From IMG/VR virus record IMGVR_UViG_2740892106_000010: a DNA stretch of 40,357 nucleotides; one strand, 5' to 3'. Positions 4,854 to 37,207 of this stretch are shown one piece after another. A model generated the notes under the pieces. That model saw nothing but the letters and a program-made list of their open reading frames with translations, did no database searches and was not told the origin of the DNA. The DNA is from a virus. Its lineage: Duplodnaviria; Heunggongvirae; Uroviricota; Caudoviricetes. Each line of letters opens with the position of its first letter. Position 1 is the first letter of the stretch. A program made the translations under genes and the position numbers.

Positions 4854-5006
4854 TCAGCCCTCCCATATCTCGTTATCGTTGGCCACATCGCGAGCTTCTT
4901 TGCTGACGAAAGCCCACTTAATGCCTTCCTGTAAGGTGCGGAACTTCCAGCTCATGAATCCGCATGCAGTAACGCAGTACCAACCGTTGATGATTTTCCA
5001 CTGCAT
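4854..5006 (-). CDS. Small hypothetical protein (50 aa), first ORF of the leftward early operon
   Basis: ORF below the track length cut-off; GAGGT-like RBS upstream of ATG at 5006; lies directly downstream of the leftward early promoter. Confidence 0.3.
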   Translation of the reverse strand: MQWKIINGWYCVTACGFMSWKFRTLQEGIKWAFVSKEARDVANDNEIWEG

Positions 5007-5159: not shown

Positions 5160-5744
5160 TTATTGTTTGTTTTTTTCGTTCTGGTTGATGACAAATTCAA
5201 TGTAACTTTCGATCTTTGCTTTCTCGGTTTCGGGTAACAATGCGTAGCGCGAGCGGTCATAGTTGATGGTCGCAGGGTCGTGCGGGTGAATCAGTAATTC
5301 ATAGCCGTGACGCCCGAATGCTGATGCAACATTCTCCAGGGTGGAAATGGAAACACTGACCTCATTGTTTAACAGGCGGCTGATTGTCACCTGGGCGACG
5401 CCGGATGCGCGGTGAAGTTTTCCCTGAGTTGAAAGGTCGCGGCTTTCGCTCATCCAGCGTTCCAGGTTGTGAGCCGCCAGCTGACCAATGTCGCTTGGGC
5501 CGACAGGCTGAAAACCTTCCTGAGAAAGCGAGCGATCGATATCAAGCCAGTTACGTGGTTTATTGGCGGCAGCTTCAATTTTTCGCGCAACCTGGTCGCC
5601 GATAACCTTCTTGCCAAGAGCCCAGCGGTTTACCAGATTTGCCTGAGTTCCAAGTTTTTCTGCCATCCGCGTCTGAACACCATTGAATTCACGGTCGATC
5701 AAGTCGTTGAGATTTTGCCTGCGGACGTCCTGGATACTTTTCAT
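5160..5744 (-). CDS. Prophage repressor candidate with two helix-turn-helix (XRE-type) domains and no peptidase S24 domain
   Basis: 194-aa ORF; two HTH-like segments (QTRMAEKLGTQANLVNRWALGKK and VAQVTISRLLNNEVSVSISTLENVA); divergent from a cro-like gene with operator-like palindromes between them; no Ala-Gly/Ser-Lys autocleavage module evident. Confidence 0.7.
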   Translation of the reverse strand: MKSIQDVRRQNLNDLIDREFNGVQTRMAEKLGTQANLVNRWALGKKVIGDQVARKIEAAANKPRNWLDIDRSLSQEGFQPVGPSDIGQLAAHNLERWMSESRDLSTQGKLHRASGVAQVTISRLLNNEVSVSISTLENVASAFGRHGYELLIHPHDPATINYDRSRYALLPETEKAKIESYIEFVINQNEKNKQ

Positions 5745-5799
5745 TTTCTGGAAAATCGCCTCATATATGAATCAGTAGATGATTCAATTTAAAGCAATA

Positions 5800-5862
5800 T
5801 TACCCAACAGGTAAATGCACCTCATGGGTAACTATCCTTGATTTTTGTTACCTTATGGGTGA
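5800..5862. promoter_or_regulatory. Immunity-region operators between the divergent repressor and cro-like genes
   Basis: Three adjacent sites: TTACCcaacaGGTAA (5800..5814, perfect), GCACCtcatgGGTAA (about 5817..5831, degenerate left half) and TTACCttatgGGTGA (5848..5862, one mismatch); a TTGATT -35-like hexamer lies between them. Confidence 0.6.
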
Positions 5863-5898
5863 ATATTTATTATCTGAAATAAATATCAGGCAATAGCT

Positions 5899-6129
5899 AT
5901 GAGCGATAACGGACATTTCGATTTCAAAAAGCACTGGCTTGCACTTACTCCGGATGAGCGTGAAGCCTTCGCACAGGAAGCCGGAACGACGAGTCACTAT
6001 ATCCAGACTCACTTAACAGGTAAGCGCAAAATGCCAGGTAAAGTATTGATGAATGGGCTTTTTAAAGCCTGTAAAACAAGACAATGGCTGCGCTCAAAAG
6101 CAGAACTGGCATACTTCTTCTACTCATGA
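5899..6129 (+). CDS. Cro-like small HTH regulator
   Basis: 76-aa ORF divergent from the repressor; HTH-like segment AQEAGTTSHYIQTHLTGKR; followed by an intrinsic terminator. Confidence 0.55.
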   Translation: MSDNGHFDFKKHWLALTPDEREAFAQEAGTTSHYIQTHLTGKRKMPGKVLMNGLFKACKTRQWLRSKAELAYFFYS

Positions 6130-6151
6130 TATCCAGCTACAACCCTCTGTA

Positions 6152-6174
6152 GACCGCCACCCGGCGGTCTTTTC
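6152..6174 (+). terminator. Rho-independent terminator after the cro-like gene
   Basis: Hairpin GACCGCC-accc-GGCGGTC followed by TTTTC. Confidence 0.6.
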
Positions 6175-6184
6175 ATATCTATTC

Positions 6185-6199
6185 GTACCTCAAAGGTAA
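6185..6199. promoter_or_regulatory. Operator-like site GTACC-N5-GGTAA (one mismatch to the TTACC-N5-GGTAA palindrome)
   Basis: Lies between the cro terminator and the downstream replication genes. Confidence 0.4.
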
Positions 6200-6277
6200 T
6201 AAAAAACCAAATCTGGTTGATCAAATTTTCCAATTGTGCAAAATAGCCAATATCAATAACAAAAAGGGGCGGAAAAA

Positions 6278-6490
6278 TTGAAGATAGTAACCAGAATGGA
6301 GGCCGCAAAAGCCGGGTTAAATCGCTATTTCACAGGAAAGCGGTGCCGTCACGGCCATCTCTCTGAAAGGTATGTTCTGAACGGAACATGTGTTGAATGT
6401 GCAATGAATAGCGCCAACCGCCATCGTAATGAATTTGCTTGTGCACTAAAGAGTGCAAGAGGGGAAACCTATGGCAAGCAGCTGGATTAA
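6278..6490 (+). CDS. Small Cys/His-rich hypothetical protein
   Basis: 70-aa ORF (TTG start in track; alternative ATG at 6296); C-x-H-G-H...C-x-x-C pattern suggests a small zinc-binding protein; sits where cII-like genes occur in lambdoid phages. Confidence 0.4.
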   Translation: MKIVTRMEAAKAGLNRYFTGKRCRHGHLSERYVLNGTCVECAMNSANRHRNEFACALKSARGETYGKQLD

Positions 6491-7301
6491 GGTTGAAGTT
6501 ATCACTCCTGATAAACCTGAAATTTTTCAGATAGCAGAAATTCTGGGTATTGATCCAGATGCTGTTCTTGGAAAGCTGGTTCGTATATGGGCATGGGCTG
6601 ACCAGCAAACAATAGACGGTAACGCTGGCAGCGTTACAAAAGGAGTACTTGATAGACTCGCTTTTATTACAGGATTTGCTGACGCCCTCATTAGCGTCGG
6701 ATGGCTTGCTTATCATGACGGCAAACTAATTCTTCCAAACTTTGAGCGACATAATGGAGAATCATCGAAAAAACGTGCACTTACGAATAGAAGAGTGGCA
6801 GAGCATCGAAAACGAGTAACGCAAAAAGTAACGCCAACAGCGTTACAAAAGGAGTTACCAGAGGAAGAGGAAGAGGAAGATATATATAAAACCCCACACA
6901 TAGCGCACGTGCGCGAGGGTGCTCCGACCAGTGAAGCGAACGGTATGCCGTTGCAGGTGGCTGAACCTGAATTTCTGGATGGCCTGAGTGAACCCATCGG
7001 GAAATTTCCGATGACCGATGGCTGGCATCCGTCGCCGGATTTTCGACGGCGTGCTGCGCTGTGGGGAACGGCCCTGCCGGAACCGGAATTTACACCTGCT
7101 GAACTTGCTGCATTCCGGGATTACTGGATGGCTGAGGGCAAAGTGTTCACGCAGGTTCAGTGGGAACAAAAATTCGCCAGGCACGTAAATCATATCAGGG
7201 GAAAATCAAAAAACGCCGGGAAAAGCGATGAGCTTGACTGGAATAACACTGACTGGATAGAAGGGGTGTGGGATGAAATCAACTCCAGAACTTCTCAATG
7301 A
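6471..7301 (+). CDS. Replication initiator, lambda O-like replisome organizer
   Basis: ATG at 6471 with GGGGAA RBS, in frame with track ORF 6453..7301; acidic linker (EEEEEED); contains DNA-level iteron-like repeats as lambda O does; immediately upstream of a lambda P-like gene. Confidence 0.65.
   Translation: MASSWIKVEVITPDKPEIFQIAEILGIDPDAVLGKLVRIWAWADQQTIDGNAGSVTKGVLDRLAFITGFADALISVGWLAYHDGKLILPNFERHNGESSKKRALTNRRVAEHRKRVTQKVTPTALQKELPEEEEEEDIYKTPHIAHVREGAPTSEANGMPLQVAEPEFLDGLSEPIGKFPMTDGWHPSPDFRRRAALWGTALPEPEFTPAELAAFRDYWMAEGKVFTQVQWEQKFARHVNHIRGKSKNAGKSDELDWNNTDWIEGVWDEINSRTSQ
6619..6855. repeat. Iteron-like repeats (putative replication origin) inside the O-like gene
   Basis: Palindrome GTAACGC-N5-GCGTTAC at 6619..6637 and 6828..6846, an extra GTAACGC at 6816..6822, and the 16-mer GCGTTACAAAAGGAGT at 6631..6646 and 6840..6855 read in different codon phases; followed by a GA-rich then AT-rich stretch. 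Confidence 0.5.
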
Positions 7302-8049
7302 GTACGATCGCTTACGTGAGCATGGTGTTGCTGTGCATGAAGAGCGGCGTGACAGCAATGGCAAAAAGGAGCAGGTTGCTAGAATTTTCAATGAACTATT
7401 TGTCCAGTTACAGGCTGCATTTCCTGCAAGCGTTTCGACCATAAGGGAGCAGAACAAACTTAATGAATTCCGTAAGCAATGGATGCTTGCGTTTCTGGAG
7501 AATGGGATCACAACAATGGAACAGGTTAACGCTGGTATGCGCCACGCCCGCGCCAGTGAATCTCCGTTCTGGCCGTCGCCTGGGCAATTCATCAAGTGGT
7601 GCAAAGACAGCAAGATGGTTCTTGGCGTCACCATTGACGATGTGATGGCGGAGTTTCACCGGTACAGCAAGGAAAAAAGTTTATATCCTGGTGGTCCCGA
7701 AAGATTCCCGTGGCGACATCCGGTTATGTACTGGGTCGTATGTGATACCCGCCGTGCAATGTATCAGCGCCAGCTTAGCGAGATTGAGGTTGAGAAACAC
7801 GCGCGCAGGCTGCTCGATGATTGGGCGAAAAAGGTGGCTTCCGGACAGCAGATACCCGATCCGGTGATCAGCATACAGGCAAAGCCAGAACCCATGAGTA
7901 CACCTCCGGACACAGGGAGAGACGTTTACCATCCACCAGGGCGAAGTTTCGGGTGTATGCCTAACGCCGCCACCCTGGGGGGAATAACACCGGCGCAGTG
8001 GCTGATGGAGGAATACAGGCGGGGAAAGGCGGCAGGATTTATCAAGTAA
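7273..8049 (+). CDS. Lambda P-like replication protein (helicase loader)
   Basis: Recalled similarity to lambda P: FPAS...REQNKLNEFRKQWMLAFLENGITTMEQVNAGMRHAR...PFWPSPGQFIKWC. Confidence 0.85.
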   Translation: MKSTPELLNEYDRLREHGVAVHEERRDSNGKKEQVARIFNELFVQLQAAFPASVSTIREQNKLNEFRKQWMLAFLENGITTMEQVNAGMRHARASESPFWPSPGQFIKWCKDSKMVLGVTIDDVMAEFHRYSKEKSLYPGGPERFPWRHPVMYWVVCDTRRAMYQRQLSEIEVEKHARRLLDDWAKKVASGQQIPDPVISIQAKPEPMSTPPDTGRDVYHPPGRSFGCMPNAATLGGITPAQWLMEEYRRGKAAGFIK

Positions 8050-34744: not shown

Positions 34745-37207
34745 ATGACGGTCTCAACAGAAGTTGACCACAACGAATACACAGGTAACGGCGTTACGAC
34801 ATCATTTCCGTATACCTTCCGTATTTTCAAAAAATCCGACCTGGTTGTTCAGGTGTCTGACCTTAACGGTAACGTTACAGAACTAGTGCTGGATGCTGGT
34901 TATACGGTAACAGGGGCGGGAACTTATAGTGGCGGTGCAGTGGTTCTTCCGTCGCCGCTTGCTGCTGGCTGGCGAATCACGATAGAGCGTGTGCTTGATG
35001 TGGTGCAGGAGACTGATCTTCGCAATCAGGGAAAATTTTTCCCCGAAGTTCATGAGGATGCATTTGACTACCTGACGATGCTGATCCAGCGATGTTTTGG
35101 GTGGTTCAGACGTGCATTGATGAAACCATCTTTGCTTGCAAAATATTACGATGCAAAGCAAAACAGAATATCTAACCTTGCAGATCCATCATTTGAGCAG
35201 GACGCTGTAAATAATCGCTCAATGCGCAATTATGTCGATGCTGCAATCGCCGGGGTTGTTGGTGGTTTTGGTTGGTTTATTCAGTATGGTTCTGGAGCGG
35301 TATACAGAACACTCCAGGATAAGATGCGTGATGGTGTCAGCATTAAGGATTTTGGAGCTCAAAATGGAATCTTAAATGATAACAAGGAGGCTTTTACAAA
35401 ATCATTACATTCGTTTAGCAGTGTTTTTGTTCCGGAAGGGGTATTCAATACATCTTTAGTTTCTCTTTCACGTTGTGGCTTGTACGGAACAGGTGGGGGA
35501 ACGATAAAACAGTATGACAGAGATGGTAATCATCTGGTTTTTAACATGCCCGATGGTGGCATGCTTAGTACGCTAACAATTATGGGAAATAAATCAGATG
35601 ATAGTGTGCAGGGACACCAGGTGTCATTTTCAGGTGGCCATGATGTATCGGTTAAAAATATCAGATTTACAAATACGCGAGGACCAGGATTTAGCTTGAT
35701 CGCTTATCCGAATAATGGTATTCCGTCAGGTTACATTGTTAGAGATATAAGAGGAGAGTATTTAGGGTTCGCAAATAATAAAAAAGCAGGTTGTGTGCTT
35801 TTTGATTCATCGCAAAACACGCTAATTGATGGTGTGATAGCCAGAAATTATCCTCAGTTTGGTGCAGTGGAACTTAAAACAGCAGCAAAATATAACATTG
35901 TCAGCAATGTTATTGGTGAAGAGTGTCAGCACGTTGTTTACAATGGAACTGAGACGGAAACTGCCCCAACGAATAATATCATTAGCAGTGTAATGGCTAA
36001 CAACCCAAAATACGCCGCAGTAGTTGTTGGCAAGGGGACTGGTAACCTGATTTCGGATGTGCTGGTTGATTACTCTGAATCGGACGCAAAGCAGGCGCAC
36101 GGCGTCACCGTTCAGGGAAATAATAATATTGCCAGTAATATTCTAATGACTGGGTGTGATGGGAAAAATGAATCAGGAGATCTGCAGAAATCTACAACCA
36201 TTCGTTTCTTAAATGCTGCAGGCAGTAATTATGCGTCAATATTCCCCATGTATAGTTCTTCTGGCGTGGTTACCTTCGAGGAAGGGTGTATCAGGAACTT
36301 TGTTGAAATTAAACATCCGGGTGATAGAAATAATATTCTGAGTTCTGCATCAGCGGTGACTGGTATTTCCAGTATAGACGGCACTACAAATAGCAATGTT
36401 GTTCATGTCCCTGCTCTTGGTCAGTACATTGGGACTATGTCAGGGCGTTTTGAATGGTGGGTTAAATATTTTAACCTTGCTAACCAGACGCTTGTTTCTG
36501 CAGATAAATTCAGAATGCTTGCTGAAGGCGATGTATCTCTGGCTGTGGGAGGCGGTATAAGTTCGCAATTGAAATTATTCAATAGTGATAATACTAAAGG
36601 CACTATGTCGCTAATAAATGGAAATATTCGAATATCTACTGGAAATTCAGAATATATACAGTTTTCTGATTCAGCCATGACACCATCGACAACGAATACT
36701 TATTCTCTTGGGTTGGCTGGTCGTGCATGGTCGGGGGGATTTACCCAGTCAGCATTTACGGTGCTGTCCGATGCGCGTTTCAAGACTGCTCCAGAGGTTA
36801 TTGATGAGAAAATACTGGACGCATGGGAAAGAGTGGAATGGGTTTCATACCAGTACCTTGACAGGATCGAAGTGAAAGGTAAAGACGGAGCAAGATGGCA
36901 CTTTGGTGCAGTTGCGCAGCATGTTATCAGTGTATTTCAGAATGAAGGCATAGATGTGTCACGACTGGCATTTATCTGTTATGACAAGTGGAATGAGACC
37001 CCGGCAGAATACAGGGATGTGACGGAAGAAGAGCATTCTGCAGGAGTTTACCCACTTATACAGACAAAGGTTCTGGTACGCGAAGCCGTCGAGGCTGGTG
37101 AATGTTACGGTATCCGTTATGAAGAGGCTCTGATTCTGGAATCTGCGATGATGAGACGCAGGGTTAAAAAGCTGGAAGAGCAAGTTTTGCAATTAACAGG
37201 GAATTGA
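34745..37207 (+). CDS. Tailspike/tail fiber with beta-helix-like central region and C-terminal intramolecular-chaperone-like domain
   Basis: 820-aa ORF; conserved podovirus-type N-terminal adaptor region (YTGNGVTTSFPYTF); Asn/Gly/Ser-rich repetitive middle; C-terminal GARWHFGAVAQHVISVF...RLAF motif like peptidase S74 chaperone domains (recalled). Confidence 0.75.
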   Translation: MTVSTEVDHNEYTGNGVTTSFPYTFRIFKKSDLVVQVSDLNGNVTELVLDAGYTVTGAGTYSGGAVVLPSPLAAGWRITIERVLDVVQETDLRNQGKFFPEVHEDAFDYLTMLIQRCFGWFRRALMKPSLLAKYYDAKQNRISNLADPSFEQDAVNNRSMRNYVDAAIAGVVGGFGWFIQYGSGAVYRTLQDKMRDGVSIKDFGAQNGILNDNKEAFTKSLHSFSSVFVPEGVFNTSLVSLSRCGLYGTGGGTIKQYDRDGNHLVFNMPDGGMLSTLTIMGNKSDDSVQGHQVSFSGGHDVSVKNIRFTNTRGPGFSLIAYPNNGIPSGYIVRDIRGEYLGFANNKKAGCVLFDSSQNTLIDGVIARNYPQFGAVELKTAAKYNIVSNVIGEECQHVVYNGTETETAPTNNIISSVMANNPKYAAVVVGKGTGNLISDVLVDYSESDAKQAHGVTVQGNNNIASNILMTGCDGKNESGDLQKSTTIRFLNAAGSNYASIFPMYSSSGVVTFEEGCIRNFVEIKHPGDRNNILSSASAVTGISSIDGTTNSNVVHVPALGQYIGTMSGRFEWWVKYFNLANQTLVSADKFRMLAEGDVSLAVGGGISSQLKLFNSDNTKGTMSLINGNIRISTGNSEYIQFSDSAMTPSTTNTYSLGLAGRAWSGGFTQSAFTVLSDARFKTAPEVIDEKILDAWERVEWVSYQYLDRIEVKGKDGARWHFGAVAQHVISVFQNEGIDVSRLAFICYDKWNETPAEYRDVTEEEHSAGVYPLIQTKVLVREAVEAGECYGIRYEEALILESAMMRRRVKKLEEQVLQLTGN

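Follow-up and report, generated by a model that had tools for sequence, protein, structure and literature searches.

The replication origin of phage lambda (ori-lambda) lies inside the gene of its own initiator, O. Four iterons, 18-19-mers spaced at 20-24 bp, start at about nucleotide (nt) 349 of that gene and are followed by a purine-rich AT tract, in which mosaic exchange occurs, and by the gene of the helicase loader P. Firmicute phage origins of the SPP1 gene 38 oriL type are likewise located inside a gene, that of a winged-helix organizer, which binds to repeats before a helicase loader takes over. The iterons of theta plasmids are typically direct repeats of about 17-22 bp that lie outside the rep gene. 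Here we describe arrays of the heptamer GTAACGC, with an adjoining purine/AT tract, inside a replication initiator gene on a 40,357-nt stretch of DNA from a tailed phage (Caudoviricetes; IMG/VR record IMGVR_UViG_2740892106_000010). We refer to this whole stretch as the window, and position numbers are those of the whole window. Together, the arrays and the tract probably form an iteron-type phage replication origin inside its initiator gene, analogous to ori-lambda.

The locus had originally been predicted to mirror ori-lambda. This was apt for the layout, which includes sites in the initiator open reading frame (ORF), a purine/AT tract, a mosaic joint and a P gene, but homology of the initiator to O was not borne out. 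As in lambda, the initiator ORF contains repeated sites with dyad symmetry, situated where the N-terminal domain, which binds DNA in lambda and is proposed to do so here, meets the loader-recruiting C-terminal part. The cluster next to the tract, which we call site B, begins at about nt 346 of the gene, close to the position of the lambda iterons. Also as in lambda, a purine-rich AT tract comes next, mosaic exchange is found there, and the gene of a P-type loader follows. Unlike in lambda, the repeats are 7-mers with a 12-bp period, there is a second cluster 209 bp upstream, the AT run is only about 12 bp long and follows a 21-nt GA tract, and the C-terminal domain is DnaT-like. Because the logic is the same and the initiator is unrelated, we class the proposed origin as ori-lambda-like in function, but outside the O family.

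The two other systems resemble the locus in part. SPP1-type origins also lie in the gene of the organizer, and winged helices of the type found in the N-terminal domain of DnaD are among the weak fold matches of our N-terminal domain. However, the repeats, the C-terminal domain and the host range differ, and no relation at the sequence level was detected. Theta-plasmid iteron origins (Rep, pi or RepA) have in common with this locus short, helically phased repeats, a winged-helix initiator (predicted here), an adjoining AT-rich unwinding element and iterons that co-evolve with the initiator. Unlike the plasmid iterons, the repeats in the window are 7 nt long, vary in orientation and lie within the initiator gene, which is the following:

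6471 to 7301, plus strand: initiator gene, 276 amino acids, from the ORF list; matches phrog_2509, 'replication initiation protein' (E-value 1.5e-129).

The palindrome GTAACGC-N5-GCGTTAC, which had been reported to occur twice about 210 bp apart, is present in two exact copies at 6619-6637 (spacer TGGCA) and 6828-6846 (spacer CAACA), offset by 209 bp. The reported duplication of a 16-mer was also found, with GCGTTACAAAAGGAGT at 6631-6646 and 6840-6855. These copies sit in a 28-nt direct repeat with 25 of 28 positions identical, and AAAAGGAGT lies directly 3' of both palindromes. Allowing up to two mismatches, 0.07 occurrences of the palindrome pattern are expected in the window; two were observed, both without a mismatch. 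A chance origin of the pair is excluded.

Five of the 17 exact heptamers (GTAACGC or GCGTTAC) in the window are packed into 228 bp. The original prediction had overlooked two elements. One is an additional GTAACGC at 6816-6822; the other, at 6852-6858, is a degenerate GaGTTAC that reads GCGTTAC in most relatives. With these extra sites, site B comprises four heptamers with the order > > < < and a period of exactly 12 bp. The array thus totals six heptamers in two clusters, two at site A (6619-6637) and four at site B (6816-6858). While the repeats do behave like iterons, as had been proposed, their unit is a 7-mer and not a 19-mer inverted repeat. The site B copy of AAAAGGAGT consists of the 5-nt spacer and what is left of the fourth heptamer. 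Site A has a true second GCGTTAC at the corresponding position in some distant relatives (locus L090 and others), whereas none can be recognised in the window.

Homologous loci were drawn from named phages, GTDB genomes and IMG/VR. A scan of genome contigs with a single protein query yielded only five loci; far more came from alignment-based scans of viral contigs. Codon usage was analysed in 32 non-redundant homologues (genes less than 97% identical), and the codons that overlap the six heptamers are given here with their frequencies:

6619 to 6625, plus strand: heptamer A1 of site A, GTAACGC; G50 is GGT in 30/32 and N51 is AAC in 30/31 homologues.
6631 to 6637, minus strand: heptamer A2 of site A, GCGTTAC on the plus strand; S54 is AGC in 27/27, V55 GTT in 31/31 and T56 ACA in 31/31.
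6816 to 6822, plus strand: heptamer B1 of site B, GTAACGC; GAAACGC in several relatives.
6828 to 6834, plus strand: heptamer B2 of site B, GTAACGC; V120 is GTA in 19/19 and T121 ACG in 19/19.
6840 to 6846, minus strand: heptamer B3 of site B, GCGTTAC on the plus strand; A124 is GCG in 23/23 and L125 TTA in 19/19.
6852 to 6858, minus strand: heptamer B4 of site B, degenerate GAGTTAC; GCGTTAC(C) in most relatives, L129 is TTA in 32/32 and P130 CCA in 31/32.

The codons over the heptamers are frozen. Normalised synonymous codon entropy was 0.075 for the heptamer codons of site A, 0.115 for those of site B and 0.24 for the GA/AT tract, against 0.77 for the 95 codons elsewhere in the N-terminal coding region. 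None of 20,000 random blocks of other codons was as low as the four low-entropy places. Leucine positions outside the sites use five to six synonymous codons, whereas Leu129 at site B is TTA in all 32 homologues, and the 5-nt spacers between heptamers vary freely. The two palindromes are read in different codon phases, as had been claimed: site A is GGT AAC GCT GGC AGC GTT ACA (GNAGSVT) and site B is GTA ACG CCA ACA GCG TTA CAA (VTPTALQ), with 209 = 3x69+2. Depending on the lineage, the same heptamer pair encodes either (G/S)NAxSVT or VTxxAL. In L006, a Xanthomonadales prophage with 52% amino acid identity, site A is shifted into the other frame. Some lineages carry a 12-nt (four-codon) insertion in site A, which adds exactly one more GTAACGC 12 bp upstream. 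Both the frozen synonymous codons and the retention of the motif across reading frames bear out the earlier claim of conservation at the DNA level. The heptamer sites are under DNA-level selection.

We surveyed the arrays in the first 560 nt of 45 genes that were less than 95% identical. All 242 exact heptamers fell within the two zones and none elsewhere. Neighbouring heptamers were spaced at 12 bp in 104 of 154 cases, and the others were spaced at 11 bp or near multiples (22-24, 33 or 45 bp). Orientation patterns were diverse and often unpaired (><<, >><, <><<, <<<<, <<<, >>). The Xanthomonadales prophage L006, for instance, has at least seven heptamers, including tandem same-strand copies at 12 bp. 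Beside the arrays, we observed ttATTAC at 6664-6670 in the window, 33 bp past A2, where L006, L090-L095, L158 and L162 have a true GCGTTAC. Judging by these relatives, cluster A probably once had a third site here, which has decayed.

The repeat word differs between lineages, but each word is used at all sites of its own genome and the layout is kept. L167 has GTCACGC/GCGTGAC at both clusters, epsilon15 and Pseudomonas phage phiPSA1 have GTCCGCA/TGCGGAC, Ralstonia phage Raharianne has GTAGACG/CGTCTAC and a Vibrio phage has a GTCAC-type word. In epsilon15, 8 of the 12 GTCCGC/GCGGAC hexamers in 9.7 kb lie inside the initiator gene, in two clusters. In L167, epsilon15, phiPSA1 and Raharianne the 3' cluster stands directly before a (GAGAA)n-type purine tract and a short A/T-rich stretch, and in the Vibrio phage a different purine-rich repeat takes the place of this tract. 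Akkermansia prophages, at 37% identity, have GTAACGC ... GCGTTACC and, after it, a GA tract and an AT-rich run. The sites have thus co-evolved with the domain encoded around them. Since the same word is used at all sites and both clusters change together, the pattern points to one trans-acting reader. Such co-variation of a repeat word with the encoded domain is a classic initiator/iteron signature.

The GA-rich and then AT-rich stretch that the original prediction had noted is present at 6860-6891 and comprises two elements:

6860 to 6880, plus strand: homopurine tract AGAGGAAGAGGAAGAGGAAGA, where the unwinding element is proposed to start; longest homopurine/homopyrimidine run in the 40-kb window.
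6880 to 6891, no strand assigned: AT run ATATATATAAAA, the proposed melting point, on account of its low stability and the homology breaks.

The 16-mer starting at 6876 has the lowest nearest-neighbour stability in the window (rank 1 of 40342), and the sites therefore adjoin the least stable DNA of the window. The purine tract is kept among relatives as (GAGGAA)n or (GAGAA)n and encodes EEEEEE or EKRREEK, depending on the lineage.

Homology ends abruptly at this tract. In Enterobacter phage BUCT554 and a Klebsiella phage, homology to the window is limited to 6471-6895. Conversely, in Actinobacillus phage vB_Apl-pPE4 (L003), positions 1501-1820 match only 6882-7200 of the window, at 86% nucleotide identity. 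The Rac ydaU gene of E. coli K-12 and a Rac-like allele with our N-terminal domain have a common part only after nt 428 of the gene. Since homology breaks right after the AT run in these three independent comparisons, the N-terminal domain and the sites travel as one cassette. What follows the cassette varies. A DnaT domain and then a lambda P homologue are found in the window, BUCT554 and pPE4, while a Rac-like prophage and phiPSA1 have other C-terminal parts followed by a DnaC-like loader. Raharianne has a DnaB-like helicase downstream. No loader gene lies immediately downstream in epsilon15, which has the DnaT domain, or in the Klebsiella phage. We also observed that pPE4, a phage recorded from Actinobacillus pleuropneumoniae, has its DnaT-domain module joined to a different N-terminal domain.

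The homologues of the initiator all begin with MASSW or MAGDW. Its 130 N-terminal residues have no credible Pfam match, even at E-value <= 10. In an AlphaFold2 model built from 28 homologues, residues ~10-90 were predicted with confidence (pLDDT, the predicted local distance difference test, > 84) as four helices and a beta-hairpin. Structure comparison of this domain returned weak winged-helix matches, among them the DnaD N-terminal domain, pSK41 RepA and the winged-helix domains of ORC2 and MCM8. The N-terminal domain is thus predicted by the model to be winged-helix-like. The model also has a long basic helix at residues 97-119 and a disordered acidic linker at residues 125-173. The end of site B, at residue 130, coincides with the beginning of the disordered linker.

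The C-terminal domain is a three-helix DnaT-type domain that binds single-stranded DNA (ssDNA). DnaT (PF17948) is the sole Pfam domain of the protein at E-value <= 0.01, covering residues 179-249 with an E-value of 6.5e-19. The ssDNA-binding domain of E. coli DnaT forms helical filaments on ssDNA (PMC13377028). The match to the NCBIfam DnaT equivalog NF002770 reached 93.4 bits, against a cut-off of 201, and aligned to profile positions 82-161 only. In place of the N-terminal oligomerisation domain of E. coli DnaT, the initiator has an unrelated winged-helix-like domain. Moreover, E. coli DnaT works at forks marked by PriA and PriB, whereas the initiator described here is tied to a sequence-specific site. 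The gene had been called O-like, which holds for its position and logic but not for its domains. No Pfam match to the lambda O-family domain was found in the initiator, and BLASTP against lambda O aligned only residues 213-266 (~55 C-terminal residues; E-value 0.003), the remainder being unrelated. The resemblance to O is confined to a short C-terminal tail, which, by its sequence, is a candidate P-docking peptide. These elements of the C-terminal part and the loader gene that follows are located as listed here:

7005 to 7217, plus strand: coding region of the DnaT-type ssDNA-binding domain (PF17948).
7233 to 7268, plus strand: C-terminal tail LDWNNTDWIEGV, which resembles the C-terminus of lambda O, LDLTNTDWIYGV (BLASTP E-value 0.003).
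7273 to 8049, plus strand: lambda P homologue, a helicase loader (PF06992, E-value 1.7e-55; 39% identity to lambda P, E-value 2e-49).

We infer that the initiator binds the sites, that the DNA next to them melts, that the helicase is handed over and that replication starts here. The N-terminal winged-helix domains would occupy the heptamers of sites A and B. Palindromic pairs suggest that they do so as dimers, which, given the 12-bp phasing, may be arrayed on one side of the DNA. As the two clusters are 209 bp, or about 20 helical turns, apart, they could be bridged as in the lambda O-some. The resulting nucleoprotein complex would strain the homopurine/AT tract at 6860-6891, which would then open. 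The DnaT-type C-terminal domains may coat and stabilise the exposed single strand, and the C-terminal tail may recruit the lambda-P-like loader that carries the DnaB of the host.

Several points weigh against an origin. A literature search found no experimental evidence for binding or origin function in any family member. Sites bound by an initiator may have a role in autoregulation, either in addition to initiation or in its place. At 12 bp, the AT run is short compared to the ~40 bp in lambda. The pairing of C-terminal domain and loader is not universal, because epsilon15 has the DnaT domain without an adjacent P gene. Finally, the GC skew turns (cumulative minimum) near 5000, in the same place as the switch in transcription direction, and because of this coincidence it is uninformative for the origin.

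The strongest of the alternatives, though an unlikely one, is that the sites are operators or roadblocks for an autoregulating initiator-P operon, bound by the initiator or by another phage DNA-binding protein, such as the small Cys/His-rich phrog_1081 protein encoded at 6278-6490, and that there is no origin. Iteron-binding initiators such as plasmid Rep proteins commonly autoregulate, and the sites are inside a transcribed operon. The window, BUCT554, the Klebsiella phage and Samsonia all have the phrog_1081 ORF immediately before the initiator gene. However, this ORF is missing upstream of L006, which keeps its heptamers. The sites lie 150-390 nt inside the ORF and not at a promoter, and no promoter-like site was found there; a promoter scan of 5700-7500 gave nothing above the expectation from shuffled sequence. 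Regulation would also leave unexplained the conserved homopurine/AT tract, its lowest stability in the window and the mosaic joint. Autoregulation and origin function are, besides, not mutually exclusive.

Somewhat less likely still, the palindromes could act as hairpins in mRNA or ssDNA (in RNA processing or stability, as an antisense terminator or in primosome assembly) instead of as protein sites in duplex DNA. Their folds are indeed better than those of shuffled sequence (z-scores from -3.9 to -4.9), the site B palindrome on the minus strand scores terminator-like with its T-rich tail, and the arms remain complementary when the word changes between lineages. Yet a hairpin does not account for one word per genome in separate clusters that change in concert. 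The unequal or single-orientation arrays of many lineages (<<<<, <<<, >>, ><<) cannot pair, and neither can the tandem same-strand copies at 12 bp in L006. No Rfam match was found in 6200-7400 at E-value <= 1.

We consider it very improbable that the locus is not an origin but a signal for recombination or packaging, in which case the mosaic joint would mark site-specific exchange. Homology breaks do cluster right after the AT run, but the same is true of ori-lambda, whose annotation has two misc_recomb features just 3' of the iterons, and the joint is explained by the need to keep the N-terminal domain and the sites together. Moreover, the ORF list places no terminase or recombinase genes next to the locus. 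That the repeats have no function in the DNA and are a by-product of peptide motifs (GNAxSVT, VTxxALP) and codon bias is hardly credible: although the protein alignment does show conserved GNA.SVT and ALP peptides, the six-fold degenerate Ser is fixed as AGC (27/27) and Leu as TTA (32/32) at the sites, the motif is kept even where frame and peptide differ, and the spacers are free.

The N-terminal domain family is large, with at least 584 confirmed IMG/VR matches and 59 named phage records. The named members include epsilon15, TL-2011b, Xanthomonas phage CP2 and Rac-like prophages, and homologues extend to Xanthomonadales, Akkermansia and Planctomycetes. As a tentative extension, held at distinctly lower confidence than the iteron-type origin itself, the family may represent a widespread and hitherto uncharacterised class of origin and initiator in which a sequence-specific winged-helix domain is fused to a host-derived DnaT filament domain, and in which origin firing borrows the replication-restart machinery. 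A DnaT-type filament on a homopurine unwinding element would then take the place of DnaA- or lambda O-style melting. Hand-over would be to P-, DnaC- or DnaB-type partners, swapped like cassettes, and the origin sequence would dictate part of the initiator peptide (the GNAxSVT loop and the EEEEEE or EKRREEK linker).

The Rac-like allele, annotated ydaU in E. coli 442/2, has a DNA match in 1513 of 5426 complete E. coli genomes, with at least 80% of the gene covered in 680 of the 5426. The N-terminal half of K-12 YdaU is different. Rac oriJ was considered as experimental support and rejected: because K-12 YdaU shares only its 3' half with the Rac-like allele, the mapped oriJ belongs to a different N-terminal domain.

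The literature search (DnaT/phage/iterons, the motif, phiV10/epsilon15, oriJ/Rac, CP2, embedded origins and DnaT-like proteins) found no description of this origin; for the motif by itself it was uninformative, since the 5,372 papers matched did so, it seems, mostly through incidental sequence. The RefSeq record of epsilon15, whose replication region is annotated in detail, marks repressor sites, integration host factor (IHF) sites and stem-loops, but no origin in or around the initiator gene. Genes of the family carry no annotation beyond 'replication initiation protein', 'primosomal protein I' or 'hypothetical protein'. The principle of an embedded origin is textbook knowledge, and what is new is a common pairing of initiator and origin with a natural specificity series. 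If our reading of the locus as an origin is correct, the origin of these phages would be pinned to ~80 bp, and the five heptamer words would provide a natural specificity series for initiator-DNA recognition. It would also mean that a cis-element shapes the protein sequence encoded over it and that a DnaT-type filament domain is linked to origin firing. A minimal replicon for vectors would be defined, and synonymous recoding of the initiator gene would not be neutral.

A third island of frozen codons lies between the two sites:

6759 to 6785, no strand assigned: GAATCATCGAAAAAACGTGCACTTAC, encoding E-S-S-K-K-R-A-L-T; codon entropy 0.22, against 0.77 elsewhere.

This island is nearly intact in L006, despite the 52% amino acid identity. 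Checked by eye, it contains no heptamer variant, DnaA box, IHF site or slippery site.

Two further inverted repeats were observed past the AT run. In lambda, an inverted repeat lies to the right of the AT-rich region. In the window, GCGCACGTGCGC at 6903-6914 is a perfect 12-bp palindrome just 3' of the AT run, and is not conserved in TL-2011b. Klebsiella-type relatives (L002 and L055-L072) have CCCCCCTAACCCCCCAAGGGGGAGGG, an inverted repeat of a C-run and a G-run, ~60-90 nt past site B. It follows the purine/AT tract, where a different C-terminal module begins.

The window matches the epsilon15/phiV10-like podophages TL-2011b, vB_EcoP_ZX5 and HEMP4 at 98-99%. The initiator lies in a lambdoid-style early region, with a CI-like repressor on the minus strand at 5160-5744 and a small regulator at 5899-6129. 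Between the small regulator ORF and the replication genes, a strong terminator-like hairpin of 8 bp at 6151-6170, with six G-C pairs and a T-rich tail, is placed like the tR1-type terminator of lambdoid early operons. The phrog_1081 ORF encodes 70 amino acids with CxxH...CxxC motifs and overlaps the start of the initiator gene by 20 nt.

Heptamers are also dispersed over the rest of the window. The whole-window total of 17 compares to 4.05 +/- 2.2 expected, and 12 single copies lie outside the initiator gene (e.g., at 4969, 10141, 19209, 20489, 23795, 23891, 25225, 27062, 28355, 29837, 34791 and 37674). These copies could be weak initiator sites or a compositional quirk. At 34785-34797, GTAACGGCGTTAC forms a perfect 13-nt palindrome of two heptamer-like halves with a different spacing.

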